Notes: generated by a model not told the origin, from the letters alone. Shown: positions 46,895 to 64,000, counted from the first letter of the stretch. The stretch: DNA of 64,000 bases from a virus (IMGVR_UViG_3300024346_003797:1-64000), one strand, 5' to 3'. Numbers and translations: made by a program.

Positions 46895-46901
46895 CTAAAT
46901 A
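46895..46901 (+). promoter_or_regulatory. Late promoter motif CTAAATA heading the GT/radical-SAM operon
   Basis: Upstream of AGGAG and ATG 46917. Downstream genes overlap or abut until 58920. Confidence 0.6.
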
Positions 46902-46916
46902 CTCGTAGGAGTGTTT

Positions 46917-47222
46917 ATGGATACCAAAACCTTAATTACTGAGGCGAAAGCTCGCTTCAATCACAATAGCGCAAAAGCGCAACTCAAAGACAAATACGAT
47001 GGAAAACTCATTGTTGCAGAACAAGGGGGACTTTGGAAAGCAAGCCCTGAACTTATTTCTACACTAAATGCATTTGATGATAACTTCATCGTACTTATTG
47101 ATAACTTTGACAATCCTGTACAGGTTAACAGAGAACAACTATTAACTGTACTAAAAACTACTTACCAAAAAGTCATGCTTGACTGGTATAAAGAATGGAA
47201 AGAACTAGAGACTAAACGATGA
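46917..47222 (+). CDS. Hypothetical protein, possible fibre-assembly chaperone
   Basis: ATG 46917 after AGGAG. GGLWKASPELI...VLIDNFDNPVQV. Function inferred from position only. Confidence 0.45.
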   Translation: MDTKTLITEAKARFNHNSAKAQLKDKYDGKLIVAEQGGLWKASPELISTLNAFDDNFIVLIDNFDNPVQVNREQLLTVLKTTYQKVMLDWYKEWKELETKR

Positions 47223-48022
47223 ACAGAGGAGCAATACTATTTGCATTTAACTCAACAAAGTTTGACTACTATTCAATGGCAGTTGCAACAGCGAAAAGAG
47301 TTAATCATTTTTTAAATATGCCTGTTACAATCGTGACGGACACTAACTCCATATCTGATTCACCGTACAAGTTTGATAAAACAATACTAGTAGAACCCGA
47401 CAAAAGTAATACCAGAGACTGGGGGATGTGGATTAATAAGGGTCGTTATCAGGCATATAACTTATCACCATATTATGAAACTCTATTATTAGACACAGAT
47501 TATATGGTTAACTCAACTAAGACATTGGATATATTTAACTACTATGATGATTTTTGTTGTCATAATAAAACTAGTTATCTAATGCAACCAGGATTACCAC
47601 AAGAAGTACTGAGTGTTTATAGTTTCGAAACACTGTGGGCAACAGTTGTTGCTTTTAAAAAGTCAAATAGAGCTAAACAAATATTTGATTGTTTAGAAAT
47701 GGTTCAAAAGAACTTTAATCACTATGCAGATTTACACGGATTTATTGCTGAAACATATAGAAATGATTACGCACTAACACTTGCTCTTAGAATAGCTAAT
47801 GGACATTCTACACTAAAACAAGATTTTATACCATGGAACTTAGTACATTTAGGACAAAAGAATGTACATATCTATCGCAATAATGATACTGAGTTTAATA
47901 CAGAATATACTATCATGCATGATAACTGGCAACGTGGTAAACTACGTAAAGAATATACCACTATCAAGGATATGGATTTTCATGTAATGAATAAACTTAA
48001 CTTTATGGAGCTAATAGCATGA
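47219..48022 (+). CDS. GT-A-fold glycosyltransferase-like protein
   Basis: RYQAYNLSPYYETLLLDTDY (DxD), WATVVAFKK, RNDYALTLA: GT8-like pattern. Confidence 0.6.
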   Translation: MNRGAILFAFNSTKFDYYSMAVATAKRVNHFLNMPVTIVTDTNSISDSPYKFDKTILVEPDKSNTRDWGMWINKGRYQAYNLSPYYETLLLDTDYMVNSTKTLDIFNYYDDFCCHNKTSYLMQPGLPQEVLSVYSFETLWATVVAFKKSNRAKQIFDCLEMVQKNFNHYADLHGFIAETYRNDYALTLALRIANGHSTLKQDFIPWNLVHLGQKNVHIYRNNDTEFNTEYTIMHDNWQRGKLRKEYTTIKDMDFHVMNKLNFMELIA

Positions 48023-48780
48023 GTAAAGGGTTTGTTATTATGGCACAAGATACTGATAAGGTTAGCTACACTAACTGTGCCAAAGCATTAGAACTAAGCA
48101 TCAAACGTGTCATGCCTAATAGTAATGTAACAATAATTACCAGTGATATGCTACCATATGGTGACCTGGGTGGCTATGCAAATGATTGGCAAGTATATGA
48201 ATGTAGTCCATATGATGAAACAATCAAACTAGAAGCTGATATGTTTTTTACCCGCAATATTGACCATTGGTGGGATATATTAAGTATTAACGATGTGGTT
48301 GTGTCAAATACTATACGTAACTTTAAAGGAGATATATCTGACTGTAGAGTATATCGTAGATTTATAGATGATAATCAATTACCCGACTGTTACAATGCAA
48401 TTACATACTTTAAAAAATCTGAAACAGCTAAACAGTTTTATACTGTAGTTAAAGATGTATTTGAGAACTGGGAAGAATACAAACTTGTACTTAAATGTAA
48501 TCCAAATGAAGAGGTAAGCACAGATTGGGCATATGCATTAGCATGTCATATTATTGGTGTAGAAAAAACAATGCTACCTGACTTTACTGAAATGAGTATG
48601 GTACACATGAAACGTTATGTTAATGGTTTGCCCAGTGAAGACTGGACTAATACATTGGTATATGAGTTATTACCCGATACTATCAGAATAAATTCCTACC
48701 CACAATTATACCCGTTACACTATCATGTGAAATCATTTAGTGATATAATATTAGAAAGCTACAAATGGAACACATATTAA
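48019..48780 (+). CDS. GT-A-fold glycosyltransferase-like paralog (ExD variant)
   Basis: WQVYECSPYDETIKLEADM, YNAITYFKKS, STDWAYALA align with the upstream gene. Confidence 0.55.
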   Translation: MSKGFVIMAQDTDKVSYTNCAKALELSIKRVMPNSNVTIITSDMLPYGDLGGYANDWQVYECSPYDETIKLEADMFFTRNIDHWWDILSINDVVVSNTIRNFKGDISDCRVYRRFIDDNQLPDCYNAITYFKKSETAKQFYTVVKDVFENWEEYKLVLKCNPNEEVSTDWAYALACHIIGVEKTMLPDFTEMSMVHMKRYVNGLPSEDWTNTLVYELLPDTIRINSYPQLYPLHYHVKSFSDIILESYKWNTY

Positions 48781-49097
48781 TTTGGGAAGCACCACCTATC
48801 ATCAAACCTGAGTTTAGGTTATATTATGATGATAAAGGTAAGGTGTTGTTTTATACATGTGACAAACCTGAAGGTAAATACATAGTTATTGATGCTAATA
48901 CATTTGCACAAGGACGTCCGGATATTAGAGTAGTTGATGGTAAAATCGCATCAGTTGATTCCGGAGCAGTTGTATCCAAACTAATATTAAATATTGAAGG
49001 TATATCTTGCGCTAGCGAAGATATTAGTATTGTAGTAGATGAAACGTATGATGGTGAAACTAATAAATGGAAATTAATAACATATGAACTTGGATGA
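48765..49097 (+). CDS. Hypothetical protein
   Basis: 110 aa, overlaps both neighbours. EFRLYYDDKGKVLFYTC. Confidence 0.6.
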   Translation: MEHILIWEAPPIIKPEFRLYYDDKGKVLFYTCDKPEGKYIVIDANTFAQGRPDIRVVDGKIASVDSGAVVSKLILNIEGISCASEDISIVVDETYDGETNKWKLITYELG

Positions 49098-50037
49098 TAT
49101 TATTGATGTAGCAGATTTAGATTGTATCTATCTTAGCTATGATGAACCACAAAAAGAAGAATTTTGGCTAAAGATTAAAAACATGGTGCCTTGGGCTAAA
49201 CGTGTTGATAGTGTTAAGGGATCTGATGCGGCACACAAAGCCGCAGGTGAAGCGAGTGATACAGAACGCTTTATATTGATTGACGGCGACAATATGCCAG
49301 AAGAAAGCTTCTTCAACATTCAGTTAGATTTTACTGATAAGGATGAAACCTTTCGTAAAGCACAGTTTCGTTGGAAGGCGGTTAATAGTATCAATGGACT
49401 ACGCTATGGCAATGGCGGTATGAGTTCATGGACAAAAACTTATGTGCGTGAAATGAAAACACATGAGCATCAAAATGAAGGTGATGTTTCACGAATAGCT
49501 GACTTTTGTTTAGACAGCAAAGACAACTTATATTGGGCAATGCATGATTGTTACTCTACTACTTATCCTAATTATACTCCGTTTCAAGCGTGGCGTGCTG
49601 GTTTCCGAGAAGGAGTCAAAATGGTGCTCGACCGAGGAGCGAAACCATCAGTCGACCAATTCAAAGAAACTGTAGCAACACGTAATCTCAACAATCTAAC
49701 GATCTGGCATAACATAGGTCGTGATGTAGAGTACGGCGACTGGGCTATTTATGGCGCACGACTAGGTACATACATGACCATGCTCACCGAGTGGGATCCT
49801 ACTAATGTGCAATGGTTTGATAACTATACAGTACTATGGGAAGAGCATTCACATAGAGATCCTGACCGTGAATCGGCATTACTCGGAGCTTCATTGCAAG
49901 ACAAATTGGGACTACCTATGCATCACTTTGATGGAGGACAAAGCAAGTTCTTCAAACGTCATTATAAAGCAGACTTTAGAAATATAGGTCCGTTAGTAAC
50001 TGAAATGGAAGTTATTCGTAAGATTGAAGGCTGGTAA
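49084..50037 (+). CDS. GT-A-like glycosyltransferase
   Basis: IYLSYDEP, RVDSVKGSDAAHKAA, FILIDGDN (DxD), NGLRYGNGG, QAWRAGFREGVK. Confidence 0.6.
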   Translation: MNLDDIIDVADLDCIYLSYDEPQKEEFWLKIKNMVPWAKRVDSVKGSDAAHKAAGEASDTERFILIDGDNMPEESFFNIQLDFTDKDETFRKAQFRWKAVNSINGLRYGNGGMSSWTKTYVREMKTHEHQNEGDVSRIADFCLDSKDNLYWAMHDCYSTTYPNYTPFQAWRAGFREGVKMVLDRGAKPSVDQFKETVATRNLNNLTIWHNIGRDVEYGDWAIYGARLGTYMTMLTEWDPTNVQWFDNYTVLWEEHSHRDPDRESALLGASLQDKLGLPMHHFDGGQSKFFKRHYKADFRNIGPLVTEMEVIRKIEGW

Positions 50038-50038
50038 T

Positions 50039-51466
50039 ATGAGTGAAAATATAAAAGGCGATGAAGTTAGCAAAGTTGATGGCAAGTTTCAAAGCTTATA
50101 TCAAAACTCATCTGAACAAGTACTAAAAGAACTTAACAAAGTAAGCCCAAGCTTTTGTTTAGCTAAGTGGTATAATGTAAGTATTCATATTCCTACAGGT
50201 AGAACACATAGTTGCTATCATCCTCCTACTCATCCTATTCCATTGGAAGAAGTAAAGATTGATGTAAGCGCATTACATAATACCAAATATAAAAAAGAAC
50301 AACGCAAACTAATGTTAGAGGGCAACCGCCCTGATGAATGTAACTTCTGTTGGGAAATAGAAGATAGCGGTAATCAATTAAGCGATAGAGCATACAGAAG
50401 TAAAGATGTATTTGCCCCGGGTATGATTGAGGAAGCAGTTAAGATTGGTCATGACGGTAATCCTAAGCCCAGGTATGTAGAAGTTAACTTCAATCAAGCA
50501 TGTAACTTTAAATGTACTTATTGTAGTCCACATCTATCTACTGCTTGGATGCAAGATATTGAAAAGAATGGAGCATTCATATTAGCAGATAGATGGCATA
50601 ATGACATGACTTGGATGAAGCAAGCCAATATGATTCCAAACAATAGGTCAGACAATCAATATGTTGAAGCATTCTGGGAATGGCTACCCGATATATATCC
50701 CACACTACAAACATTTCGTATGACCGGCGGTGAGCCGTTGATGGATAAAAACACTTTTAAGATGTTTGAGTACGTTAAGGATCACCCAAAGAAAGACTTA
50801 CAATTAAGTTTAACTAGTAACTGTTGCCCTCCTGCAGGTCAGTGGGATAGGTTTATGCAGGGTCTAAAGGATATCACTGATGCAGATGCTGTAGATCATT
50901 TTATGTTATTTTGTAGTTTAGACAGTTGGGGTAAGCAGGCTGAATATATCCGTACTGGTATGGATTTTGAATTACTAGAGAAAAATATTATTGACTTTTT
51001 AATCAATAGTCAAAAGCATAGTTTAACATTTATCGTAACATTCAATGCACTAAGTTATACAGGCTGGGTAGAATATGTTAAACAAATACATAATATGCGT
51101 AAAACATATTGTACTGATAGACAACTGATTTGGTTTGATGTTCCTATGTTATCTAGTCCTGAATGGCTTAACCCTAGATTATTCCCAGAACTTATTACAG
51201 AGCTTGAGAAGTCAGTTAAATATATGAGTGAAAACAAAGAGGCAGATCATAACAGATTTAAAGGCTTCAAAGATTTTGAAATTAATAAAGTTGAAAGACT
51301 TATCGATTGGGTAAAAACCGAAAGCGATTTTAATAGAAGTTTAGCAATGAAAAACTTTTATCTGTACTTCACTGAACATGATAAACGTAGAGGAACAAAC
51401 TTCTTAGAAACCTTCCCCGAATTAACTGAACAATGGAATAAATGTAAGGACGAACATGGACGATAG
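50039..51466 (+). CDS. Radical SAM protein 1, N-terminal Twitch/SPASM-like domain
   Basis: CNFKCTYC, TGGEP. N-terminal C..KW...SCYH...CNFCW. Start re-assigned to ATG 50039. Confidence 0.9.
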   Translation: MSENIKGDEVSKVDGKFQSLYQNSSEQVLKELNKVSPSFCLAKWYNVSIHIPTGRTHSCYHPPTHPIPLEEVKIDVSALHNTKYKKEQRKLMLEGNRPDECNFCWEIEDSGNQLSDRAYRSKDVFAPGMIEEAVKIGHDGNPKPRYVEVNFNQACNFKCTYCSPHLSTAWMQDIEKNGAFILADRWHNDMTWMKQANMIPNNRSDNQYVEAFWEWLPDIYPTLQTFRMTGGEPLMDKNTFKMFEYVKDHPKKDLQLSLTSNCCPPAGQWDRFMQGLKDITDADAVDHFMLFCSLDSWGKQAEYIRTGMDFELLEKNIIDFLINSQKHSLTFIVTFNALSYTGWVEYVKQIHNMRKTYCTDRQLIWFDVPMLSSPEWLNPRLFPELITELEKSVKYMSENKEADHNRFKGFKDFEINKVERLIDWVKTESDFNRSLAMKNFYLYFTEHDKRRGTNFLETFPELTEQWNKCKDEHGR

Positions 51467-52814
51467 AGTTGTATTTGTAAAAAACGTAAGAGATAGATTA
51501 AATGCAGTAAGCCCAAGCTTCTGTGCAATGAAATGGCTACATCAAACATTGTATCTACATACAGGTGATAATCATAGTTGTTATCATCCTAGACCACATC
51601 ATATCCCATTAGATGAAATTGCGGTTGATCCAAGCGCATTACATAACACTAAATGGAAAAAAGAGCAACGTAAAAAGATGCTTGAAGGCGAGCGTCCTGG
51701 TGAATGTTACTATTGCTGGAACATCGAAGACCTAGAAGGAGATCATATCAGTGATAGAATGATACATAGTTCAAGTGATTTTAGCGAACCTCTCATTGAA
51801 AAACTAGGACAAATGCCATGGGATGCACCTGTTAACCCACGCTATTTAGAAGTTAGCTTTGGCAATGCATGTAACTATCGTTGCGGATACTGTAGCCCAC
51901 AAGCTAGTACAATGTGGATGGAAGAAATCAAAAAGCATGGCAACTATGACTTAACATATAACCAGTATGGTATTGACTTTTTAACATCAGGTACGTATTA
52001 TGGTCCTAAAGAAGAAAACCCATATATTGAAGCATTCTGGAAGTGGTGGCCTAGTTTAAGAAATGATTTGCACACACTACGCATTACAGGTGGTGAGCCA
52101 CTAATGAATCCGGGTGCTATGCAGTTCTTTGATTTACTAGAAGATGAGCCTGCACCAAACTTAGAAATCACATTGAATAGTAACTTGGGAGTCACGTTTG
52201 ACAGAGTTGACAGATTAATTGAACGTGTAGGATCATTAACATCACAAAATAAAATACGTAAGTTTAGCTTCTTTACTAGTATTGAAGGCTGGGGAGAACA
52301 AGCTGAATATATGCGTACAGGTATGAAGTGTGACCACTGGGAAAGAAACATGAAAGCAATCATGAAGACCGGTGCAACTATCAATTTGATGTGTACATTT
52401 AATGTATTATGTGTAGCAACATTTGAGAATTTGTTACACAAAGTCATTGAATGGCGCAAAGAGTTTGGTAAGCATAGTGTTGGCCTTGATACTCCTTATT
52501 TGAAAGAACCTCCCCACTGGATGATTAACATATTGACTCCTGATTTTATCCCGCACATGGACAAAACATTGAAGTTTATTCAGGATAATCCAGAACACTT
52601 CCATGCAGTAGAATATGAAAAGTTCAAGCGGGTCACTAACTATATGAAAGAACATGTGATTAGTGAAGACAAGATCCGTGCAGGACGCAGAGATTTCTAT
52701 AGCTTCTTCTCAGAAAATGATAAACGATTGGGTACTGATTTGATTAAAACATTCCCGCAATATGAAGAATTTTACAAACTATGTAAGGATGTTTATGACA
52801 ACTATGATAAATGA
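51456..52814 (+). CDS. Radical SAM protein 2, paralog of protein 1
   Basis: CNYRCGYC, TGGEP. N-terminal CAMKW...SCYH...CYYCW. Confidence 0.9.
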   Translation: MDDRVVFVKNVRDRLNAVSPSFCAMKWLHQTLYLHTGDNHSCYHPRPHHIPLDEIAVDPSALHNTKWKKEQRKKMLEGERPGECYYCWNIEDLEGDHISDRMIHSSSDFSEPLIEKLGQMPWDAPVNPRYLEVSFGNACNYRCGYCSPQASTMWMEEIKKHGNYDLTYNQYGIDFLTSGTYYGPKEENPYIEAFWKWWPSLRNDLHTLRITGGEPLMNPGAMQFFDLLEDEPAPNLEITLNSNLGVTFDRVDRLIERVGSLTSQNKIRKFSFFTSIEGWGEQAEYMRTGMKCDHWERNMKAIMKTGATINLMCTFNVLCVATFENLLHKVIEWRKEFGKHSVGLDTPYLKEPPHWMINILTPDFIPHMDKTLKFIQDNPEHFHAVEYEKFKRVTNYMKEHVISEDKIRAGRRDFYSFFSENDKRLGTDLIKTFPQYEEFYKLCKDVYDNYDK

Positions 52815-54027
52815 AACTAACAAACATTCTTGGTGTGTGAATGCATATCACGCAATGAGTGCAAACAATGATGGTAGCACCAAAACATGTTGTATGATTG
52901 GAGAAGAATACAATAGATTATCTAAAACTTCTAATGAATATTATATTGGTGTAAAAAGCATTAAAGAAAACTTTGATTGTGATGCCGCACAAACTATTAG
53001 AGATAATCTCTCAAATGGTATAAGAGATAATGCATGTCGTCTATGTTGGCAGGAAGAAGATGGTGGCAGAAAAAGTAAACGTTTACGTGATAATGATAAG
53101 TATATCCACGCCATCACGTATGATAATCAAAAACCATTCACAGGTCTTGCTAAAGTAGAATTAAACTTAGGTAACAATTGCAACATTAAGTGCAGAACAT
53201 GTCACCCCACTATCAGTTCTACTTGGATGAAAGAAGCATTTGACTTGGATCATGCACCACAAAACACTACCTATAAAGAATTTAGTATCGGCATGAAAAA
53301 ATACCATCAACATTACGATGATGAAAGTAGCTTTTGGCCTGACTTAACAGAGAACTTGGAAACAATCAAGCAGTTTGATTTTTACGGTGGTGAACCATTC
53401 TTAAGCAAAAAGATGTGGGAAATACTACGTATATGCGTTGAGCGTGGTTATGCTAAAGATATTGAATTGCATTATAATACGAACGGTACAGTATGGCCCA
53501 AAGATGTTGAACTATGGAAGCACTTTCGTTCAGTAAACATTAGCTTTAGTATAGATGGCGTTGGGGAACGGTTTGAATATATGCGATATCCTGCAAACTG
53601 GGAAGAAGTAAAATTAAATATGCAAAAAGCGATTGATTTTAATAATACTCATAACAACTTATATTTAAGTTGGTGTATGACATTGAGTAGTTTAAACATA
53701 TATTACTTGCCTGAACTACTAGATGAATATTATAATAACTGGACTGGTATGGGATTCTACTTAAATCTTGTACATAATCCAAATCATTTCAATATAAGTA
53801 AAATGTCCCCTGAAGCAAAAGAAGCTGTAATTGCACAGTTAAATAATATTCCCAAAGAATATGAAAACGCATGGCATCAGCTTCCTGGTATTATTGGGTT
53901 CATGACCGGCGGTGAATATGAGCCTGCTGTTTGGGAACACATGCTGAAAACTATTGATAAGCATGATAACTATAGAGAACAAGATTTCTCTAAAACATTT
54001 AGCGAATTTGCAAAGGCGATAAGATGA
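52795..54027 (+). CDS. Radical SAM protein 3, N-terminal Twitch/SPASM-like domain
   Basis: CNIKCRTC, YGGEP. N-terminal WCV...G..KTCC...CRLCW. Start 52795 (after AAGGA) or 52804. Confidence 0.9.
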   Translation: MTTMINETNKHSWCVNAYHAMSANNDGSTKTCCMIGEEYNRLSKTSNEYYIGVKSIKENFDCDAAQTIRDNLSNGIRDNACRLCWQEEDGGRKSKRLRDNDKYIHAITYDNQKPFTGLAKVELNLGNNCNIKCRTCHPTISSTWMKEAFDLDHAPQNTTYKEFSIGMKKYHQHYDDESSFWPDLTENLETIKQFDFYGGEPFLSKKMWEILRICVERGYAKDIELHYNTNGTVWPKDVELWKHFRSVNISFSIDGVGERFEYMRYPANWEEVKLNMQKAIDFNNTHNNLYLSWCMTLSSLNIYYLPELLDEYYNNWTGMGFYLNLVHNPNHFNISKMSPEAKEAVIAQLNNIPKEYENAWHQLPGIIGFMTGGEYEPAVWEHMLKTIDKHDNYREQDFSKTFSEFAKAIR

Positions 54028-55319
54028 GCGAACAATTCTGGAAATCTAATAACTTAATGCAGATGCACATTGAGTTAACTAACTTATGTAATGCAGCCTG
54101 TCCTATGTGTGTTAGATTTTATAATAATAGTACGCTTACTCGTCCGGATCTAGAGTTTGGTCAAATTACTATTGATAAATTTAAAAAATACTTCCCACCT
54201 GAAATCATACGTAAATGTAATCTTATCTTATTCTGCGGAGTACACGGAGATCCGTGTATTGCTAAAGATATGTATGAGATATGTGAATATATTGCTGAGT
54301 GTTCAACAGGCACCGCAGTACGTGTTAATACCAATGGCGGGATGCGTAAGAGTGAATGGTGGAGTAAATTAGGTAAACTATTTGCAAAGCATAAACACGG
54401 ATTAGTAGATGAATACTGGGAAATAACATTCAGTATTGATGGATTAGAAGATACAAATCATTTGTATCGTAGAAATGTAGAATGGTCTGCATTGATGGAA
54501 AACGTAAAGGCTTATATTAATGCCGGTGGCGGAGCAGCTTGGGATTATTTAATATTTAAACATAATGAACATCAAATATTAGAAGCAAAACAATTAAGTG
54601 AAACTATTGGATTTAGAGAGTTTATACCTAAAAAAGCCTTAGGTGTTGATTCGTACAGTGCAAATCAACTAACCATCATGCCTGCATTGAATAAAGAAGG
54701 TGAGTTAGATTATATCATTGAGGCACCAGTCAACCCAAAAAATAGAAATATGTTTAATCCCAATGGTACTATGCCATTGACATATTGGTCCTTTAAAGTA
54801 GATGAATATCGTAAACTTAAAGATGATAAAGAAAACACAACAAGAAAATATAACGAAACTGCATCAAGGATTTACGTAGATGTTATTAATAATGAGAGCT
54901 TTGATGACCAAGACTCTTGTAGTATCTCATGTAAGTCTAAAACACCTAAAGGTGGCACAGAGATATTTGTAGATAACTTTGGACGAGTAATGCCTTGTTG
55001 TTATATAGGTACACATTTGAATGGTAAATATAACGATGTTGCATCTATGCAGTTGTTTAATCATATGAATCAATATGGATGGGATAACTTTAACTTAGAT
55101 TTACATACACTAGAAGAAATTCTTAATGGAGGTCATTTAGATAGAGTGTTTGCAGATTCATGGAATAAAGACTCTGTAAAGAACGGTAAGTTAGCATACT
55201 GTGCTAATACATGTGGAAAAAAATCATCAATAGATAAAATCTTTTCCCATGAGTTAAATGACAAAGCAACAGCTATGGAGCAGTATAGAATAAACAATAG
55301 TGAATGCAAGTTCGATTAA
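54024..55319 (+). CDS. Radical SAM protein 4, C-terminal Twitch/SPASM-like domain
   Basis: CNAACPMC, CGVHGDP, NTNGG, SIDG. C-terminal CKSK...GRVMPCCY...CANTC. Confidence 0.9.
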   Translation: MSEQFWKSNNLMQMHIELTNLCNAACPMCVRFYNNSTLTRPDLEFGQITIDKFKKYFPPEIIRKCNLILFCGVHGDPCIAKDMYEICEYIAECSTGTAVRVNTNGGMRKSEWWSKLGKLFAKHKHGLVDEYWEITFSIDGLEDTNHLYRRNVEWSALMENVKAYINAGGGAAWDYLIFKHNEHQILEAKQLSETIGFREFIPKKALGVDSYSANQLTIMPALNKEGELDYIIEAPVNPKNRNMFNPNGTMPLTYWSFKVDEYRKLKDDKENTTRKYNETASRIYVDVINNESFDDQDSCSISCKSKTPKGGTEIFVDNFGRVMPCCYIGTHLNGKYNDVASMQLFNHMNQYGWDNFNLDLHTLEEILNGGHLDRVFADSWNKDSVKNGKLAYCANTCGKKSSIDKIFSHELNDKATAMEQYRINNSECKFD

Positions 55320-55333
55320 TATAGGATATTATA

Positions 55334-56554
55334 ATGAATGAAAAAACTTTTTGCAGTTTACCCTTTACTGGGGTATTTTTAGGTAGTGATGGTGGTGTAA
55401 GACCTTGTTGTTCATTACGGGGAGAACTAGGTAATATTAATGAAAATTCGCTTGACGAAATTATTAACGGGGAAATAGCAACATCTATTCGGACATCCAT
55501 TGTTAACAACGAATGGCATACTATGTGTAGTCAATGTCAAGAGTTAGAAAGTAGAGGAGCTAGGACAGAACGAGTAGGTACATTACATTTATATGATGAG
55601 TTGAATACTCTTACAGAAAAAGACTTTAAGCTAACAAAGCTAGATTTACGTTGGAGCAATACTTGTAACTTAACTTGTAATTATTGTTACGAGTATTTTA
55701 GTTCAAAATGGGCTGAAATTAAAGGAATCAAAGTTAATGCAAATAAAGATATAGCAGAGGAAAAGGTCTTTTCTTTCATTGAAGAAAACATGAAAAAAAA
55801 TCCGGATGTTAAGTACAATGTTAACTTGTTGGGAGGAGAGCCATTATTACAGAAGCCTAACTCTAAACTCCTAGATACAATAAGTAGTAGATCCGATATA
55901 TACATATTGACCAATTTAACCGTCCCTTTAGAAACAAATAAAATAGCATCTAAACTATTAGAGGGTGATAATGTCGCATGGGGTATAAGTTTTGAAACAA
56001 TAGGTAAGCGTTTTGAACATGTTAGATATGGTGGAGATTGGGCTCAACTTGTAAAAAACCTACGATATTTGCGTGATAGTAAAGTTAGATCCATTGATTC
56101 CCATCCTTTGTATTGTGTATATAGTGCATTTAATTTAGTAGAATACATGGAGTTCATAGCAGAAGAAGGATATTTTAACAAACAATATTGGCAGGTATTG
56201 CAGAACACTGCTGGATTAGATGTGTATCAACTATCATACCCAATGAAAGTAAAGGCAATGAAAGAGTTAGAGATATGCTTTGATAGATTTGATAAACATT
56301 TTGACCTATCATTATTGAAATCGGTTCATACAGGACTAGAAGCTTCAATGGATATACAATATTATAATAGTGAAGCGGCATTTACTTGGCTATCAGATTT
56401 AGATAAATCTATACCCGGACAAAAACAAGCATTCATCGATTTATGGCCTGAAGTATATAGTGATATGCAACGCACCCGTACTTGGGAACTGAACAGTTCC
56501 GGTAAATATTTAGCGGACTCTAACAACCGCCCCACTTATAAACCAGACAACTGA
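55334..56554 (+). CDS. Radical SAM protein 5, N-terminal Twitch/SPASM-like domain
   Basis: CNLTCNYC, LGGEP. N-terminal CSLPF...DGGVRPCC...CSQC. Confidence 0.9.
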   Translation: MNEKTFCSLPFTGVFLGSDGGVRPCCSLRGELGNINENSLDEIINGEIATSIRTSIVNNEWHTMCSQCQELESRGARTERVGTLHLYDELNTLTEKDFKLTKLDLRWSNTCNLTCNYCYEYFSSKWAEIKGIKVNANKDIAEEKVFSFIEENMKKNPDVKYNVNLLGGEPLLQKPNSKLLDTISSRSDIYILTNLTVPLETNKIASKLLEGDNVAWGISFETIGKRFEHVRYGGDWAQLVKNLRYLRDSKVRSIDSHPLYCVYSAFNLVEYMEFIAEEGYFNKQYWQVLQNTAGLDVYQLSYPMKVKAMKELEICFDRFDKHFDLSLLKSVHTGLEASMDIQYYNSEAAFTWLSDLDKSIPGQKQAFIDLWPEVYSDMQRTRTWELNSSGKYLADSNNRPTYKPDN

Positions 56555-56555
56555 C

Positions 56556-57797
56556 ATGGCAATATTAAACAGAAATAGATTTCCAATGACATTTACATGG
56601 GGAGGATGTACCTCCTTAGATAAAACTTATATTAATTGGATTGAGAATGGAAAAGATCATAGAATCTTTGGATATAAAGATTATAACGATACTGATTACT
56701 GGTATATTGAGATTATGCACGGGGACGTATTTTATTCATTCCCATTAGAAACACTTATCCCCGACGATGTATTGTATAATATACGACAAGGTAAAGTTGT
56801 TCTAATACTAAGCAACTTTTCTGAATCGTATCATAGCATCGTAGAAGATATATACATCCATACTGTTATTAACGGTAAGATTCCTCCGGAACAAATACTA
56901 TTATATACTAACAGTCCGGATATCATACAAGAAATAAACTTTATAAGCAAACAGTTTAGTCAGAATCCCATTAAGGCACATTTGTTATTTGAGTTTGAAA
57001 TGGGTGCGTCCAATACTATAGCATATTCTGATGACAAGTCAGAAGAAAGTAGATGTTACACTAGTAAAACATTAGAACTTGCTGACTATCCTAAAAAATA
57101 TTTAAGTTACAATGGTATGCGAAGACCACAGCGTGTAAGTATAGTTGCTTTGTTAGCATCCATGGATCTATTAAAGCACGGCTATGTAAGTTATAATTCA
57201 TATGTACGATCGGATGCAGACAACATTGATGCAAAAAGAAACTATGATGAAATGTTATTATGGCATATAGAAAATCCTAGATTTATTGATATCTTGCAAA
57301 ATAATAAGGATATATTGTTAAGCTTAAACAGTTTATACTTAGATACTGAACCGGGTATCACTAGTGGGAAGGCAGGATATCACCAAATCACTAAACAGTT
57401 TTATGAAGAAACTTATTTTAGTGTTGTTACTGAAACGCTTTGTATGAAGAAGTTTAGTAATGACGGTAAAACAGGAATGGGTAGAATATTAAGTGAAAAG
57501 ACCTTTAAGGCTATATTAAATCATCATCCTTTCTTGTTAGTGGCAGTTCCCAGAAGCTTACAGTTTTTAAAGAGCATGGGATATAAAACCTTTCACCCAT
57601 ATATAAACGAAGAATATGATAATGAAACTGACGATTCTACCCGTTTACTAATGATAGCTGATGAAACTAAACGTTTATGTGAGCTTTCTTCGGAACAACT
57701 GCAGGAGTTTTTATTGGCTACTAAAGAAATAGTCAACTACAATTTTCAAGTTTTAAAATCTAAAAAAGGACCGTGGTTGATACCATTGATTAACTAA
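56556..57797 (+). CDS. GT-B/GT10-like glycosyltransferase
   Basis: YFSVVTET...SEKTFKAI..HPF...GYKTFHPYINEEYD resembles the fucosyltransferase-type E...(S/T)EK...P motif. Confidence 0.55.
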   Translation: MAILNRNRFPMTFTWGGCTSLDKTYINWIENGKDHRIFGYKDYNDTDYWYIEIMHGDVFYSFPLETLIPDDVLYNIRQGKVVLILSNFSESYHSIVEDIYIHTVINGKIPPEQILLYTNSPDIIQEINFISKQFSQNPIKAHLLFEFEMGASNTIAYSDDKSEESRCYTSKTLELADYPKKYLSYNGMRRPQRVSIVALLASMDLLKHGYVSYNSYVRSDADNIDAKRNYDEMLLWHIENPRFIDILQNNKDILLSLNSLYLDTEPGITSGKAGYHQITKQFYEETYFSVVTETLCMKKFSNDGKTGMGRILSEKTFKAILNHHPFLLVAVPRSLQFLKSMGYKTFHPYINEEYDNETDDSTRLLMIADETKRLCELSSEQLQEFLLATKEIVNYNFQVLKSKKGPWLIPLIN

Positions 57798-57798
57798 G

Positions 57799-58920
57799 AT
57801 GAGTGACACAAAATACACTGTATATTGGAAAAAAGATACTCGAAATTATTTATATATTAATAAGCCAAAATTATATGAAGAGGCTAATAGAGAACCATAC
57901 AGTGCTTATATTATGTACTATATGGGCACCCCGTTTGAAGAATATGATACACAAGTATTAGACCATTTGCGTAAAGATCCAACTAGTATTATGATTATGA
58001 TACATGACTGGTCTCCTTGCGGATCTCCTCCTACTAGCAATTTGTATTTGGAAAAGATTGAAGCTATTGTTAAGTTTACTAATTTATTACCTGAACAATA
58101 TTATCTGATAACAATGGACACTATAGAAGCGGAAAGCATTAAACATGCATTAGTAGAAAGAGGTATACACATTAACTTTATAGGTAGAAACTCGTTACTA
58201 ATAGATGAGACTATTGTATATGATAAACCCTTAAAGGCACCGGAAAAACTATTTAGTATATTCTGCCGAGCATCTAGAGAATGGAGATTTCACTTCTTTT
58301 GTGATATGATTAAGTATGGGTTGTTAGACAAAAGTATTTATAGTTATATGAAAGCGTCCCCTTACCCGGAAGACCCACACCCTACAGAAATATCAGAAAT
58401 AAAAAAGATGATACCTTTAAAATATCGGCTCTTACCTAAAATTAGAAATGAAATAAATACATGGGTTGATAATATGCCATATACTTTAGTAGAAAACATT
58501 TATGATTATTATTCTCCAATTCTCTTTGATGCAATAAGCAATTCACATATACATATTGTTTTAGAGACAATGGTGATAGGACAAATACATCATGTTACTG
58601 AAAAGACCTGGAAAGCTATATCGGTAAAGAAACCATTTATAATATATGGTGTTTTGGGTAGTTTACAGTGGTTGCACACACGAGGCTACAAAACTTTTCA
58701 CCCATATATAAATGAGGACTATGATTTAGAACAAGATCCAATCAGACGCAAAGACATGATTATACGTGAAATGACAAGGATTTCTAACTTGGCAGATGAT
58801 GAGTTAGCACAATTAATAGAAAACTGTACTCCCACAATAGAGCATAATCATAAACTATTTCTTGAATCAAGAAACTTTAAGTGGCCAGAAGAATTTGCCA
58901 AGCTTGGTATCTTTAAATAA
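57799..58920 (+). CDS. GT-B/GT10-like glycosyltransferase paralog
   Basis: HIVLET...TEKTWKAI..KKPFIIYG...GYKTFHPYINEDYD. Confidence 0.55.
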   Translation: MSDTKYTVYWKKDTRNYLYINKPKLYEEANREPYSAYIMYYMGTPFEEYDTQVLDHLRKDPTSIMIMIHDWSPCGSPPTSNLYLEKIEAIVKFTNLLPEQYYLITMDTIEAESIKHALVERGIHINFIGRNSLLIDETIVYDKPLKAPEKLFSIFCRASREWRFHFFCDMIKYGLLDKSIYSYMKASPYPEDPHPTEISEIKKMIPLKYRLLPKIRNEINTWVDNMPYTLVENIYDYYSPILFDAISNSHIHIVLETMVIGQIHHVTEKTWKAISVKKPFIIYGVLGSLQWLHTRGYKTFHPYINEDYDLEQDPIRRKDMIIREMTRISNLADDELAQLIENCTPTIEHNHKLFLESRNFKWPEEFAKLGIFK

Positions 58921-59271
58921 TCAACCGTATTTCTTAACTTCTCTTACCGGGTCGTTAAGAACTTCAGCCATTCTGTTCTTTAAAATATATCTCTCATTCA
59001 ATATATTACGAACATGGATAGCTCTACGCCCAACTTCCTCTAAACTATACTTGTGCTCTACAGTGTACTTTTTAAAATCATCTTCTAATTCCCAGACTCT
59101 GGCATGAACATCATATAGTTTATCTAAGTCTTCCCTAATCAGATTAAGATCCAAATCTTTTAGCTGATTGGAGTAAAAATCTAATTCTTCTTTGTTATCA
59201 TTTAATTTTGCAAACTTAAGCTTGGCGATACAATATCTATCTACTAATTCAATAACTGGGAATTTATACAT
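58921..59271 (-). CDS. Helical hypothetical protein (DUF6165-like)
   Basis: ELVDRY.IAKLK...VWELED...RN..NER..LKN...EVKKY pattern. Last gene of the sugar-enzyme operon. Confidence 0.5.
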   Translation of the reverse strand: MYKFPVIELVDRYCIAKLKFAKLNDNKEELDFYSNQLKDLDLNLIREDLDKLYDVHARVWELEDDFKKYTVEHKYSLEEVGRRAIHVRNILNERYILKNRMAEVLNDPVREVKKYG

Positions 59272-60472
59272 TTTTTATTTCTACCTTTGGAAAATACTTT
59301 AAAAACAAGTCTTGCGGCTCGTTTCTTACTACCTTAATACGATTACTAATCTCAGTAAAGAAGTTCCAAGCTAATGGCATAAACAATATTTTATCTTCTT
59401 TACTATATTCTTTTAACACATCTATAGATTTTATAGGTGAATTGTGTCCCGGACTGTATAGATTATGTTTGAGTGGACTATCATCTATAATCAAATCTAA
59501 TGGTTCTTTGATATAGTTTAACAATGTGTTACCTTTAGCGGCTGCACCGTAACCCACTACCTTATAACCCTGATCCTTATATGTATTGATTACAGATTTT
59601 AATTCAAACATATTAGATTGAACTGTTTGCTCCCAATCTTTATATGTTTTTAAATCTAACAATTTGGATTCATTCTTAATAATGTTCTCTACGTTAAATG
59701 TACGTTTTTGTATTTTACTTAATACGAATATATAGCTATTCCCGTGTATCGGAGTTTTAATTACATCTATTAGATTTAAATTTGCTCTTTTAGCTAACTC
59801 ATTCATACTATTAGCATTAAAGAAATTGATATGTTCGTGGTATATAGTATCAAACTCATTGTTTAAAACCATATCTGCTTGACTAGTTTGAATGAATAAC
59901 ATAGTATGGTCACTCATTAATTCTTTAACAGTTTGCAAAAATTCTATTGGATTTGGATTATGAGCAAACACATTCTGTGCAGTAATGGCATCAAAATTAT
60001 AATGAATTTTCTCTATAATGTTTGGACCAAAGTAGTCACAAATAACATCATGTTTTGCTGAACTAGTTGGATGAATATTTTCTGCTGGATCAATGCCAAA
60101 TGTATTTAAACTATAGGGTTTAAAACAATCTAGTTGCGTACCATCATTACATCCAATATCTAATACGTTACCAGTCTGCCGGTCCATGTTTTCTACTACA
60201 TAACCTGCAAACCATTTACTATATTCTTTTAATGTTTTGCTGGTACCAGCAACGTACAAGTAATTGGAATAGATTATTTTAGGATCAACTGTATGAGTTA
60301 ATTGCAAATGACAGCAATCTTTACACAGATTAACTCCTAATGGATATGTATCTTGTTTGTATGGTTTGTCTTTTAAATTATTAGCTAAAGGTTGATTACC
60401 TAAATCTAATGAAGGTATTAAATGTGTGCCACCACAGGCTAAGCACGTTGTATTTTCTATTAGGTTATTCAT
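59264..60472 (-). CDS. NDP-sugar C-methyltransferase (TylCIII/EryBIII/TcaB9-like)
   Basis: Zn site CLAC...CKDC, LDLGNQPLAN, SAM motif DIGCNDG, NVFAH, FDTIYHEH, GYGAAAKGNTLL. Confidence 0.88.
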   Translation of the reverse strand: MNNLIENTTCLACGGTHLIPSLDLGNQPLANNLKDKPYKQDTYPLGVNLCKDCCHLQLTHTVDPKIIYSNYLYVAGTSKTLKEYSKWFAGYVVENMDRQTGNVLDIGCNDGTQLDCFKPYSLNTFGIDPAENIHPTSSAKHDVICDYFGPNIIEKIHYNFDAITAQNVFAHNPNPIEFLQTVKELMSDHTMLFIQTSQADMVLNNEFDTIYHEHINFFNANSMNELAKRANLNLIDVIKTPIHGNSYIFVLSKIQKRTFNVENIIKNESKLLDLKTYKDWEQTVQSNMFELKSVINTYKDQGYKVVGYGAAAKGNTLLNYIKEPLDLIIDDSPLKHNLYSPGHNSPIKSIDVLKEYSKEDKILFMPLAWNFFTEISNRIKVVRNEPQDLFLKYFPKVEIKNV

Positions 60473-61370
60473 ATGTTTTATATTGATTTCTGTTGCTAAA
60501 GGTCACTGTATCAATTTTGTTTACTAATTCAGTTACAATAGAGGTAGTAGTGTCATTGAACATAAAGTTATAATCTGTTTTAAACTTGTTTACGTCCATT
60601 AAAAAGTTGTAAGCATTTGGAACATCAGTAGTACGTTGTACATTAGAATGTAATACCTGACTGACATTAGATGATATGTTTTCAACGGTATCACAAAAAC
60701 TAGCTAAATTGTAAATACCAAATTTGGGTGTCTCAATAATAGTTTTTATCGCCCTAGTTAAGTCTGTAATTCCCAATATTGGTCGTTGAATATCTACATT
60801 GTTTATAGTTAAACTGTTAGTTTCAACCGATCTTTTAGTCATTGAATTAATCATTAACTCCTCTCTGACATTTGGACTCCACCCGTTAACGGTACCAAAA
60901 CGTAAACCTACAATATTATATCCTTCAGCTATAAACTTCTGTGCGTTTAAATCTAACGAGTACTTGGTTAAGTCGTAGTTATTAATCGGTTTGAATGTAA
61001 TGTGAACATCTTCTGCTAGTGGAACATCAGTTATTCCATATACGCTTCCACTACTAGCATAAATCAATAATTGTGATTTATCTAGTTTGTTTACTAAGGT
61101 GTTGAAGTTATTTACATTGTTGTTCCAACTAGAGTTAACATCACCAATACACATTTTAACCGAGCTATGGCCGGCTAATAATACAATGGTATCAAACTTA
61201 CTGAGATATTCTTTAGTAAGATTATTGTAATCGATAGTATAGCTATATTTAAAATCTTTACCATACCAGCAAAGATCCACACTTTCAATTGAGTAAGCTG
61301 AGTTTAATTCGTATATAAGTCTGGAACCAATATAACCATTCCCACCTATAATTAGAACAGATTTAGTCAT
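60465..61370 (-). CDS. NAD-dependent NDP-sugar epimerase/dehydratase/reductase (extended SDR)
   Basis: GGNGYIG, ASSGSVYG, YDLTK (YxxxK), LRFGTVNG.SP. Confidence 0.9.
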   Translation of the reverse strand: MTKSVLIIGGNGYIGSRLIYELNSAYSIESVDLCWYGKDFKYSYTIDYNNLTKEYLSKFDTIVLLAGHSSVKMCIGDVNSSWNNNVNNFNTLVNKLDKSQLLIYASSGSVYGITDVPLAEDVHITFKPINNYDLTKYSLDLNAQKFIAEGYNIVGLRFGTVNGWSPNVREELMINSMTKRSVETNSLTINNVDIQRPILGITDLTRAIKTIIETPKFGIYNLASFCDTVENISSNVSQVLHSNVQRTTDVPNAYNFLMDVNKFKTDYNFMFNDTTTSIVTELVNKIDTVTFSNRNQYKTYE

Positions 61371-61374
61371 CGAT

Positions 61375-61417
61375 TATTTAGTAAAAACTTTGGGTATGTG
61401 AAACATTTTCATAAGTA
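61375..61417. promoter_or_regulatory. Divergent late motifs CTAAATA (-, 61375-61381) and ATAAGTA (+, 61411-61417)
   Basis: 4 and 5 nt upstream of the respective ATGs; no SD on either side. Confidence 0.6.
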
Positions 61418-61422
61418 TAATA

Positions 61423-64000
61423 ATGATTAGAGATGTATTTTATTACGGTAATAAACCCAACGCACACCCAAGAGAAAAACACGCAATTGATTTAGCCGAT
61501 GCTAGAAGTCAATGCACTACTGAACATTTTTGGATAATCAACGAATATTGCGACTACACAAACTTTGATTGGGATTGGGATTTTGACTTTCTACCCGATG
61601 AAGATGTGTGGGCTGAAGAACACAACAACGTATGGCCCAGTAGCTATCAAAAAGATAGTGGTACTTGGTTATGTTCAGAACAAGACAGTCAAGTAATTAT
61701 CTATCGTGCAGATGTGGATCCTGTATCATTAAAAGATATTATATCAGGTAATTGGAAAATCATTGAAGCAATAGACATGCCATCGTTTGATTTTAAATGG
61801 CACCCTGATCCAACTGAGGATCCCTACATATACGTATTTGGTAATCAATGGTATTCTGGTATGATAATGCCTACAGTAGAATATCATGTTCCCGGGGCAA
61901 CAAATAGAAAATACCTAACAGATAAGATAGCGCAACTGTTGCCTATACCTGAACTGTTTGATACGATACATGAAACATTAGACTTTGATTATAGCTGGAG
62001 ACCAGACCCAACTAGCCCACCATATACCTATGTGTTTGGTAATACTCAGTACCCAAGTAGTGTAATGCCAACTATAGAGTACACTGTTGAGGGCGCAACT
62101 GAACGCAAGTTCATCGAACAGATTACACCTAAGCTAAAACCTCAACAACATAAGTTTAATATATTAGAAATTATAGATAGAAACAAGTTTGACTTTAGTT
62201 GGGTACCAGATCCAACTAGCCCTCCTTATATCTATGTGTTTGGTAATACTCAATACCCGGGTACTATAATGCCAACAATAGAATATACTGTTGAAGGTGC
62301 AACAGAACGTAAGTATGTAGATAATATAGTTGCACATTTATTACCAATGCAATCAGTATTCAATACGATATATGAAACATTAGACTTTGATTATAGCTGG
62401 AGACCAGATCCAACTAGCCCACCATATATCTATGTGTTTGGTAATACTCAGTATCCCGGTAATATTATGCCGACCATTGAATATGTAGTAGAAGGTGCAA
62501 CAGAACGCAAGTATATAGATGATATTGTTCCTAACTTAGCACATCAGCCACACAAGTTTAAACTACTAGAAGATATTGATACTACTAAGTTTGACTTTAG
62601 TTGGGTACCAGATCCAACTAGTCCTCCGTATATCTATGTATGGGGTAATCAATGGAATAAACCTGAGGATAAGATTAGTGTGCAGTATGTTGTTGAGGGT
62701 GCGACTGAATACAAGTATATGGAACAACGTGCTACCCGTAAAGCATGTACTGACAACTGGCAGACACCTGGTTATGTAATACAGAACAGCTTTGATTATA
62801 GTTGGGAACCTAATCCAAATGATAATCCATATATCTATCAATTTGGTACACAATGGCAAAAAACAGGCGGCCCTAAGTATATAGTAGAAGGCGCTACCGA
62901 AATCAAGTATGTAGATGTTATTAAAGCAAGTATTGTACCGTGGCAGTTTAAGAACTGGTTAATACCTAGAAATATAGAACAAACTAGTTTTGATTTTAGT
63001 TGGCATCCCGATGATACAGAACCAAACTATATCTATCAATTTGCTAGTCAATGGAGTAAATCGGGCGGCCCACGGTTCTCTATGCCAAACGCAACAGATG
63101 TTAAGTATATTGATTTTCCTATAGCAGTAGCTAAAACTGATATGACACACTGGTCTATACCTGCAGGATTAGATACTAGTGAGTTTGATTACAGTTGGCA
63201 TCCTGATATTGAAGACGAACCCTACATCTATCAGTTTGGAACACAATGGCAAAAGACAGGCGGCCCTGTATTTACTGCACCATTATGCAATGAAACAACT
63301 CCTGTCAAGTATGTTGATATAACAAAAGCAAAAATGTTACCTAATGATAGTAACTGGGTAACACATGAAAACATAGTTGATTTTGATTATAGTTGGCACC
63401 CAGACTCTACTGAACAACCCTATATCTATCAATTTGGAACACAATGGCAAAAGACAGGTGGTCCGTCATATGTAGTTGGGGGTGCTACTGAAATCAAGTA
63501 CGTAGATGTTATAACAGCAAATGTATCAGTTACAACTAAAAATTGGGTAACACATGAGGAAGTTATTGACTTTGATTACAGCTGGCATCCAGATAGTACT
63601 GAACAACCCTATATATATCAATGGGGCAATAAACATTATGGCAGTGATTTACAGCCCACAATAGAATATATTGTACCCGGTGCAACACAAATCAAACATA
63701 TGTCGCAAGATGTTAACCTATCAGTAAGTGACAAATGGATTGAACATTATGATATTGACAAAACTAAATTTGACATGTCATGGAGACCTGATCCAACTAG
63801 TCCTCCGTATATCTATATATGGGGAAATAAACACATTGCTCCTGAACTTAAATCTACCGTTGAGTACCATGTTGAAGGGGCTACTGAGATTAAATACATG
63901 CCGGAGCGATTGGCAGTGTTGCCAGAGTTTGATAGATGGCATGAAATACAGCTAGTTGATAGAACTAAGTTTGATTTGACATGGAGACCTGACCCACGTG
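61423..64000 (+). CDS. Large tandem-repeat protein (>859 aa, truncated at right edge), absent from the ORF track
   Basis: Hand translation MIRDVFYYGNKPNAHPREK... open to the window end. At least 12 copies of a ~63-68 aa unit FD[FY]SW.PDP..PPYIY.[FW]G.Q......Y.VEGATE.KY. Confidence 0.9.
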   Translation, partial: MIRDVFYYGNKPNAHPREKHAIDLADARSQCTTEHFWIINEYCDYTNFDWDWDFDFLPDEDVWAEEHNNVWPSSYQKDSGTWLCSEQDSQVIIYRADVDPVSLKDIISGNWKIIEAIDMPSFDFKWHPDPTEDPYIYVFGNQWYSGMIMPTVEYHVPGATNRKYLTDKIAQLLPIPELFDTIHETLDFDYSWRPDPTSPPYTYVFGNTQYPSSVMPTIEYTVEGATERKFIEQITPKLKPQQHKFNILEIIDRNKFDFSWVPDPTSPPYIYVFGNTQYPGTIMPTIEYTVEGATERKYVDNIVAHLLPMQSVFNTIYETLDFDYSWRPDPTSPPYIYVFGNTQYPGNIMPTIEYVVEGATERKYIDDIVPNLAHQPHKFKLLEDIDTTKFDFSWVPDPTSPPYIYVWGNQWNKPEDKISVQYVVEGATEYKYMEQRATRKACTDNWQTPGYVIQNSFDYSWEPNPNDNPYIYQFGTQWQKTGGPKYIVEGATEIKYVDVIKASIVPWQFKNWLIPRNIEQTSFDFSWHPDDTEPNYIYQFASQWSKSGGPRFSMPNATDVKYIDFPIAVAKTDMTHWSIPAGLDTSEFDYSWHPDIEDEPYIYQFGTQWQKTGGPVFTAPLCNETTPVKYVDITKAKMLPNDSNWVTHENIVDFDYSWHPDSTEQPYIYQFGTQWQKTGGPSYVVGGATEIKYVDVITANVSVTTKNWVTHEEVIDFDYSWHPDSTEQPYIYQWGNKHYGSDLQPTIEYIVPGATQIKHMSQDVNLSVSDKWIEHYDIDKTKFDMSWRPDPTSPPYIYIWGNKHIAPELKSTVEYHVEGATEIKYMPERLAVLPEFDRWHEIQLVDRTKFDLTWRPDPR

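Follow-up and report, generated by a model that had tools for sequence, protein, structure and literature searches.

The DNA window analysed here comprises the initial 64 kb (64,000 nucleotides) of a 77,090 bp contig from an uncultured giant freshwater phage (IMG/VR entry IMGVR_UViG_3300024346_003797), and contains, downstream of tail-fibre genes, a cluster of radical S-adenosylmethionine (SAM), glycosyltransferase (GT)-like and sugar-modifying genes that probably serve a glycan-related pathway. CheckV completeness of the contig is 22%, which implies a genome of roughly 350 kb. Matches to PHROG families revealed that T4-superfamily parts (portal, baseplate hub and wedge, a gp46/47-like nuclease and a gp55-like late sigma factor) are encoded 5' of the cluster. 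The phage is assigned to the RsoM2USA/XacN1-like jumbo group. In a megablast comparison with 50,697 phage records, neither the cluster nor the 17 kb upstream of it produced a match. The genes of the cluster are listed below; nucleoside diphosphate is abbreviated as NDP, open reading frame as ORF, amino acid as aa, and short-chain dehydrogenase/reductase as SDR.

46917-47222, plus strand: g103, conserved small leader gene
47219-48022, plus strand: g267, predicted GT8-like GT-A glycosyltransferase
48019-48780, plus strand: g253, paralogue of g267
48765-49097, plus strand: g110, small ORF
49084-50037, plus strand: g317, predicted GT2-like GT-A domain (residues ~3-175) with a helical C-terminal domain
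50024-51466 (TTG 50024 or ATG 50039), plus strand: r480, core N-terminal-twitch radical SAM
51456-52814, plus strand: r452, core N-terminal-twitch radical SAM, paralogue of r480
52762-54027, plus strand: r421, variable N-terminal-twitch radical SAM
54024-55319, plus strand: r431, radical SAM of conventional order
55334-56554, plus strand: r406, variable N-terminal-twitch radical SAM
56556-57797, plus strand: g413, predicted GT-B fold glycosyltransferase (accessory)
57799-58920, plus strand: g373, second GT-B-like protein
58921-59271, minus strand: g116, small helical protein
59264-60472, minus strand: mt402, predicted NDP-sugar 3-C-methyltransferase (TylC3/TcaB9/MtmC type)
60465-61370, minus strand: sdr301, extended SDR, predicted NDP-sugar epimerase or 4-ketoreductase

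The 12 plus-strand ORFs extend from 46911/46917 to 58920, and neighbours either overlap by 4-53 nt or lie 1-14 nt apart. The three minus-strand ORFs are convergent with this operon, with zero spacer. A preliminary description of the window had reported 12 tightly coupled genes (46917-58920) adjacent to and behind the tail-fibre genes, a convergent SDR/C-methyltransferase/helical-protein operon and a divergent repeat protein; the ORF junctions agree with this layout, and the repeat-protein ORF, which starts at 61423, encodes 2212 aa on the contig. At 58920/58921, the stop codon of the plus operon abuts that of the minus operon, and converging transcripts would overlap. No terminator-like hairpin was detected between the two operons in a promoter and terminator scan, the counts of which were not above those of shuffled sequence.

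All five radical SAM genes listed in the preliminary description feature the CX3CX2C motif and match the Pfam Radical_SAM model. The motif is found at residue 160 in r480, 139 in r452, 140 in r421, 22 in r431 and 111 in r406. The Twitch-type assignment made earlier is supported. r480, r452, r421 and r406 match the NCBIfam model NF033640 (N_Twi_rSAM, twitch domain-containing radical SAM protein) at full length, with scores of 312, 310, 303 and 212 bits, respectively, all above the curated cut-off of 170 bits. The four proteins also share four cysteines, arranged as C-x17/18-C ... C-x2-C, which are located N-terminal to the core (Cys 45, 64, 106 and 109 in r480) and are invariant in the family alignment. 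In r406, the Pfam SPASM domain (residues 7-69) precedes Radical_SAM (residues 108-263). r452 and r480 are 37% identical (BLASTP 3e-106), and in both the CX3CX2C motif would bind the SAM-cleaving cluster. r431, in which the core comes first and is followed by a C-terminal Cys cluster, matches phrog_21308 (4.7e-15) and is not a member of NF033640, as its score of 52 bits falls below the cut-off.

The phage enzymes resemble BtrN, NeoN and HygY in that a radical SAM core is combined with one predicted auxiliary-cluster half-SPASM domain. When the family profile was compared with the PDB, the N-terminal region aligned weakly to the BtrN twitch (E 0.0055), and the best match of the core was 8vpo, a cyclopropyl synthase (5e-10) acting on peptides that are ribosomally made and post-translationally modified (RiPPs). 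In contrast to BtrN, NeoN and HygY, the phage enzymes are permuted, the twitch coming first, and core similarity is not significant beyond the superfamily. A phmmer search of the PDB with r480 returned nothing, and no solved NF033640 member was found. Literature searches for NF033640, or for an N-terminal twitch/SPASM domain, retrieved no paper; no characterised member of NF033640 was found, and the family is a sequence definition only. Complex prediction for r480 and r452 gave a score of 0.00, which is no verdict and speaks neither for nor against binding.

None of the five GT-like proteins (g267, g253, g317, g413 and g373) matches a GT model of Pfam, NCBIfam or PHROG. The GT folds implied by the preliminary description are nevertheless supported by Foldseek and VIA comparisons, by a profile match to glycogenin and by homology. 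A profile of 33 sequences of the g267/g253 family matches glycogenin, a GT8 enzyme, with E=8e-5, at positions 12-112 only, a segment that includes the DxD region. Residues D92 and D94 of the D92-x-D94 motif of g267 and the C-terminal histidine H255 are conserved in the family; g253, which is related to g267 with a BLASTP value of 6e-7, has E-A-D in place of DxD. The GT8-like family includes 3124 cluster representatives (50% identity) at E<=1e-3, across which D92/D94 and the histidine are conserved, and no GT model was found in a Pfam scan of 33 family representatives. One long member (among P0241-P0390) is fused to a CBM_5_12 carbohydrate-binding module (4.7e-07).

The AlphaFold 2 (AF2) model of g317 has a predicted local distance difference test (pLDDT) value of 83. 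Its top Foldseek matches are all glycosyltransferases, including the S-glycosyltransferases SunS/ThuS, WrtF, TarP and the chlorovirus capsid enzyme A64R. In VIA comparisons, g317 aligns to B4GALNT1 with a Z of 10.7 and a root-mean-square deviation of 2.9 over 143 residues, and to ThuS, WrtF and A64R with Z values of 10.0, 10.0 and 8.7, respectively. D67 and D69 are invariant in 24 sequences, and a long g317 paralogue weakly matches PF13641 (0.0063). The AF2 model of g413 (pLDDT 92) has exclusively GT-B enzymes among its Foldseek matches. VIA aligned 255-285 residues across positions 1-412 of this model, with a Z of 11.3 for the H. pylori alpha1,3-fucosyltransferase and 11.1 for the T4 beta-glucosyltransferase. 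The fucosyltransferase is the best VIA row and would suggest a GT10 enzyme, but many other GT-B enzymes tie with it. g373 shares its C-terminal half with g413 (BLASTP 1.5e-17) and keeps the invariant columns of the g413-family alignment; its GT-B assignment is by homology of the C-terminal half only. The g317 and g413 family profiles retrieved no GT from the PDB, and the ESM Atlas offered weak leads only, GT2 (0.87) for g317 and GT10 (0.78) for g413. The five genes are thus GT-like at the fold level, as judged from models and profiles, and family placement (GT8, GT2, GT10) is not established.

The minus operon encodes a full-length TylC3/TcaB9/MtmC-type enzyme, predicted to act as a sugar 3-C-methyltransferase, which corresponds to the TylCIII/TcaB9-type enzyme of the preliminary description. 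The three Pfam domains of mt402, Methyltransf_13, Methyltransf_23 and Methyltransf_14, all score above their gathering cut-offs (PF08421, 60.1 against 31.3; PF13489, 71.7 against 27; PF08484, 86.5 against 23.5), and an N-terminal Cys4 zinc motif is formed by Cys10, 13, 50 and 53. Homology extends over the full length (residues 8-375) to the D-mycarose 3-C-methyltransferase 4rv9 of the MtmC type (3.2e-54); TcaB9 (4e-38), 5t6b (1.6e-34) and KijD1 are aligned as well. Although mt402 shares the three domains, the zinc motif and full-length homology with TylC3, TcaB9, MtmC and KijD1, it is phage-borne and lies outside any antibiotic cluster.

The adjacent sdr301 matches PF01370 (72.4 bits, cut-off 20.9) and PDB entry 6vo6 (1e-12), and features G9-x-x-G-x-x-G15, S106/S107 and Y132-x3-K136. 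RmlB-type dehydratases carry an Asp-Glu acid/base pair after the active-site Thr, in a TDEVYG-type motif. An NDP-hexose 4,6-dehydratase of this type was considered for sdr301 and rejected, as the protein has SSGSVYG at this site, without the Asp-Glu pair, and scores 26 bits against the 365-bit cut-off of TIGR01181. Because the Ser-Tyr-Lys triad occurs without the dehydratase acid pair, sdr301 is predicted to be an epimerase or a 4-ketoreductase. The epimerase of the preliminary description therefore stands as an extended SDR with an epimerase/reductase active site, which may be a 4-ketoreductase instead.

Loci are referred to as L followed by a number. The third protein of the minus operon, g116, has no family match, is 90% identical in L008-L010 and has a counterpart in L086. 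In L008-L010 and on the L050 contig, the C-methyltransferase, an SDR and g116 recur alongside genes of the g413 family; three contigs of 92-105 kb, which have no g413 either, lack all of them. Relatives of the C-methyltransferase are rare in phages, being found in 5 of the 50,697 records. We infer that g413, g373, g116, mt402 and sdr301 constitute one accessory unit, confined to few lineages, that makes and transfers a 3-C-methyl-branched sugar.

A search with r480 identified 49 related IMG/VR loci. A core consisting of the small leader gene, two GT8-like genes, a GT2-like gene and two radical SAM genes is present in at least 44 IMG/VR loci, in conserved order and in synteny with fibre genes, as well as in the cultured Ralstonia phage RsoM2USA. 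The common order starts with a g392-type fibre gene, a g321-type gene for an S/T-rich fibre and a g103-type leader gene, followed by the two GT8-like genes, a small variable gene and a g317-type gene. Often a gene for a 757-1084-aa protein comes next, and then the orthologues of r480 and r452, behind which additional radical SAM genes vary from locus to locus. The g103 family occurs in 40 of the 40 loci that reach its position. r480 orthologues are 61-76% identical across loci, and r452 orthologues are 70-82% identical. Considered together, the two enzymes are 61-82% identical in more than 40 loci, whereas identity among the adjacent GT8-like genes is only 24-32% (49% in L050); this is an unusually strong constraint on enzymes without an assigned reaction.

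The 757-1084-aa protein (for instance L040:6751-10005), which is present in most related loci between the g317 orthologue and r480, is missing from this position in the window. It is composed of an N-terminal part of 530-860 residues and a second g317-like domain in the last ~225 residues, in which DxD is intact. Apart from one flanking 5'-3' exonuclease, Pfam analysis of ten accessory ORFs from related loci yielded only weak DUF6071/GDSL hints.

RsoM2USA (343.8 kb) is the only cultured relative of the module. Its ORF354-348 mirror the core and are all annotated as hypothetical. This phage has been placed beside Xanthomonas phage XacN1, and mass spectrometry has confirmed as virion proteins two products encoded upstream of the module, ORF361 and ORF356 (PMC8504454).

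Cellular relatives of the N-terminal-twitch radical SAM proteins are mostly found in Bdellovibrionota, according to a single search pattern. Among 123 ORFs located within about 5 kb of 15 such bacterial genes, 25 encode radical SAM proteins, 7 encode GT1-group and 5 encode GT2 enzymes; an ABC-2 transporter pair and a DegT aminotransferase are found in the same neighbourhoods. In L061, for instance, the order is GT4, unknown, radical SAM and GT4, and the radical SAM gene overlaps the downstream GT4 gene. This GT-rich context supports, as independent guilt by association read from gene order, a link with polysaccharide synthesis. Chromosomes of Bdellovibrionales metagenome-assembled genomes also carry tandem arrays of six (L068:1320-9257) and five (L055:1740-9257) N-terminal-twitch radical SAM genes.

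The elements relevant to the timing of expression and the flanking fibre genes are as follows.

46892-46901, plus strand: T4-type late-promoter-like motif TATCTAAATA, with NTAAATA at the matching position in relatives
13803-14798, minus strand: gp55-like late sigma factor gene (context), matching phrog_12791 'sigma factor for late transcription' (2.4e-71)
44716-45894, plus strand: g392, tail fibre with a C-terminal intramolecular-chaperone domain (Peptidase_G2), candidate glycan acceptor
45904-46869, plus strand: g321, S/T-rich fibre-like protein, candidate glycan acceptor

CTAAATA is found at 46895-46901, ahead of g103. Over the whole window this sequence is not enriched (13 found, 23 expected), and neither is TATAAATA; the evidence for a promoter consequently comes only from positional conservation in relatives. 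NTAAATA, mostly in the form of the T4 late consensus TATAAATA, is located ~25-30 nt 5' of the leader gene in 39 of 40 related loci. It also precedes 27 of 64 g321-type and 21 of 37 g392-type genes of the related loci, and was found ahead of none of the internal operon genes (GT8-like, g317-like or comp5) in relatives. Both elements of a T4-type late unit are therefore present, a TATAAATA-like -10 element and a gene for a gp55-type sigma factor. Because a conserved motif precedes the leader gene and a gp55-like sigma gene is present, the plus operon is predicted to be transcribed late, beginning at the leader gene, in line with the late timing proposed earlier. The late motif that the preliminary description assigned to the minus operon is not accepted as established. 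Only 4 nt separate this candidate from the ATG of sdr301, conservation is lacking in L008 and L010, and the late status of this operon is doubtful. One freshwater metatranscriptome library contains short contigs that match parts of g317, r480 and r452 identically, and a second library contains similar ones; they indicate presence in RNA libraries only, give neither starts nor timing, and may reflect DNA carry-over.

The S/T-rich fibre neighbours of the preliminary description are confirmed by composition. S+T residues account for 31% of g321, which contains no Cys, and for 22% of g392, which carries the Peptidase_G2 chaperone domain and matches fibre/structural PHROGs. The g321 family comprises 64 ORFs in 39 loci, with a median S+T content of 24%, and the g392 family occurs in 30 related loci. 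Upstream, a single ORF of 5904 aa (26182-43896), about 20% of whose residues are S+T, fills the space between the baseplate wedge and fibre genes. Its positional counterpart in RsoM2USA is the 2541-aa ORF361, a virion protein confirmed by mass spectrometry (PMC8504454).

We favour the reading that the cluster is a late module of soluble cytoplasmic enzymes, which assemble a glycan and modify it through radical chemistry, with the fibre or virion proteins of the phage itself as the most likely target, and we consider this reading to have an even chance of being correct. That the pathway is glycan-related is likely in its own right; virion fibre or baseplate proteins come first among the possible acceptors, with a probability slightly short of one half. 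A virion acceptor is suggested because the operon lies within the fibre module and has the promoter type of fibre genes, no membrane or export component is encoded, and S/T-rich fibres are adjacent. Module proteins contain no membrane-like segment (maximum 19-residue hydropathy 1.42), and no flippase, polymerase or priming transferase was seen in the module. Independent support for a glycan role of the radical SAM family comes from its bacterial relatives, whose neighbourhoods contain GT4/GT2 genes together with an ABC-2 transporter and DegT. The CBM_5_12 fusion in one GT8-like family member provides a further link to carbohydrates.

In the proposed mechanism, the GT-A enzymes, in which the predicted metal-binding acidic motifs are retained, would initiate and elongate a glycan by drawing on nucleotide sugars of the host. 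The radical SAM enzymes would then abstract hydrogens from sugar C-H bonds and so oxidise, epimerise or dehydrate given positions; the C-terminal-twitch enzymes BtrN, NeoN and HygY perform such radical chemistry on sugars. mt402 would methylate a host NDP-4-keto-6-deoxyhexose at C3, sdr301 would subsequently reduce or epimerise the methylated sugar, and g413 and g373 would transfer the branched sugar. The most specific version, in which the N-twitch radical SAM enzymes edit sugars already attached to virion fibre proteins and this lineage crowns the glycan with a self-made 3-C-methyl-branched deoxysugar, is a speculative proposal that we consider more probably wrong than right by a wide margin.

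Several points weigh against the favoured reading. Neither a glycan, nor an acceptor, nor a substrate of the radical SAM enzymes has been observed for any member. The nearest solved radical SAM core, 8vpo, is a peptide maturase, and SPASM/twitch enzymes often act on peptides. The GT assignment is at the fold level, without a curated GT model match, and nucleotidyltransferases share the GT-A fold with g317 at Z~9. Fibres are usually rich in S and T, and such a composition is no proof. The late promoter is a sequence motif, so that timing is predicted, and late expression would also fit remodelling of the host surface.

Such remodelling is the strongest of the rival explanations, though an unlikely one. 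The soluble GTs and radical SAM enzymes would modify lipid- or nucleotide-linked precursors of surface glycans, so that competing phages or progeny no longer bind the cell or its debris. Late receptor blocking that protects progeny is a known phage strategy, as in T5 Llp, and the bacterial radical SAM relatives reside in polysaccharide-type loci with an ABC-2 transporter. The GTs of pelagimyophage fibre clusters, of which GT8 is the commonest, have been interpreted in this way (PMC7029224). However, the module lacks a membrane protein, flippase, polymerase and priming enzyme, the operon shares promoter type and strand with the fibre genes, and a late change would have only a short time before lysis in which to reach the outer surface. 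It is less probable again that the radical SAM enzymes edit residues of a fibre or other phage protein, by epimerisation or cross-links in the manner of RiPP maturases, while the GTs glycosylate separately. SPASM/twitch radical SAM proteins are mostly peptide maturases, as is the best structural match of the core (8vpo, 5e-10), secondary weak matches to many RiPP maturases were obtained in NCBIfam, and the genes adjoin fibre genes. Yet no RiPP recognition element (RRE) domain and no short gene resembling a precursor were seen, GTs rather than precursor peptides abound in the bacterial context, and the lack of Cys in g321 excludes thioether links in that protein.

The alignment of the g413 model to T4 beta-glucosyltransferase (Z 11.1) could hint at DNA hypermodification, with GTs and radical SAM enzymes decorating modified bases of the phage DNA. 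Phage GTs that build glycans on DNA have been described (Pyle et al. 2024, as quoted in PMC12619734), and RsoM2USA has a second thymidylate-synthase-like gene. The Z value of g413 is, however, no better than for many other GT-B enzymes, the thymidylate-synthase-like genes of RsoM2USA are located more than 100 kb from its module, no hydroxymethylase, kinase or base-modifying gene occurs in or near the cluster, and the operon has a late-type promoter and a position in the fibre module, all of which renders this explanation highly improbable. Hardly any probability, and marginally the least, is left for a soluble glycosylated small molecule, aminoglycoside- or nucleoside-like, made during infection. 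TylC3-type C-methyltransferases, SDRs and radical SAM enzymes of the twitch type characterise pathways for antibiotic sugars, but genes for aglycone-forming or cyclitol enzymes, for export and for resistance are missing from the cluster, and the core module is devoid of the C-methyltransferase in most lineages.

Glycosylation of virion proteins by virus-encoded enzymes has precedents. The capsid of chlorovirus PBCV-1 is glycosylated by the virus-encoded GT A64R, and in mycobacteriophages it is established that phage GTs glycosylate the virion (Freeman et al. 2023, PMC10527164, as quoted in PMC12619734). As in these systems, predicted soluble GT-A enzymes adjoin structural genes in the present cluster, and the g317 model matches A64R among others. 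In contrast, the known systems have no radical SAM enzymes, their hosts and GT families differ, and the present locus is known from genes alone. In pelagimyophages, a 'host recognition cluster' located in a hypervariable late region includes tail fibres, GT8-type GTs and radical SAM cassettes, the function of which was not assigned (PMC7029224), and a T4-like marine genome carries 12 radical SAM genes (PMC5332604). The present cluster similarly combines fibres, GT8-type GTs and radical SAM cassettes in one region. It differs in belonging to an RsoM2USA/XacN1-like phage; moreover, those reports are descriptive, read the GTs as O-chain modifiers and leave the radical SAM family undefined. Literature searches combining jumbo phage, radical SAM and glycosyltransferase found no paper. 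The preliminary description held that no characterised phage pathway has this combination. None is characterised indeed, but a claim of uniqueness would be too strong, as such cassettes occur in pelagimyophages (PMC7029224). What this window adds is an accessory unit for a C-methyl sugar, linked to two GT-B genes, together with a repeat protein whose g317-like end is degenerate.

If the most specific version of the mechanism holds, the phage would encode a diversifiable glycan code on its host-recognition apparatus, written by an enzyme family without a known reaction. The scale is considerable, with 3124 GT8-like cluster representatives and radical SAM arrays of up to six genes in Bdellovibrionota, none of which has a known reaction, product or target. 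Working out a single member would give the whole radical SAM family a chemistry, and would show whether giant phages glycosylate their host-recognition fibres, with relevance for host range, resistance to proteases or antibodies and phage-phage competition. The module is experimentally accessible, as the cultured RsoM2USA carries its core.

Among the small genes, g103 is listed as an ORF from GTG 46911 and probably starts at ATG 46917, which lies behind AGGAG; it is related to its L041 member with a BLASTP value of 5e-8. A homologue of g110 was found only in L050, and no relation was detectable between g110 and the 209-aa gene at the corresponding position in other loci. Scans of g103, g110 and g116 against Pfam, PHROG and NCBIfam yielded nothing significant. 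g103 and g110 were considered as RiPP precursors and rejected, as their composition is helical or ordinary, with no Cys-rich core, and no RRE was seen.

Beyond the minus operon lies the start of the repeat protein.

61423-64000, plus strand, continuing to contig position 68061 (L004:3424-10062): 2212-aa protein with ~20 tandem 66-aa units

The units follow the motif FD[FY]SWRPDP..P.YIYV[FW]GN ... PTIEY.V.GAT.RKY, and the protein has no match in Pfam, NCBIfam or PHROG. Its C-terminus (residues 1991-2175) is homologous to the GT-A-like domain of g317 (BLASTP 7e-9). The DxD position is occupied by F-A-K, suggesting that this domain may be inactive or re-purposed.

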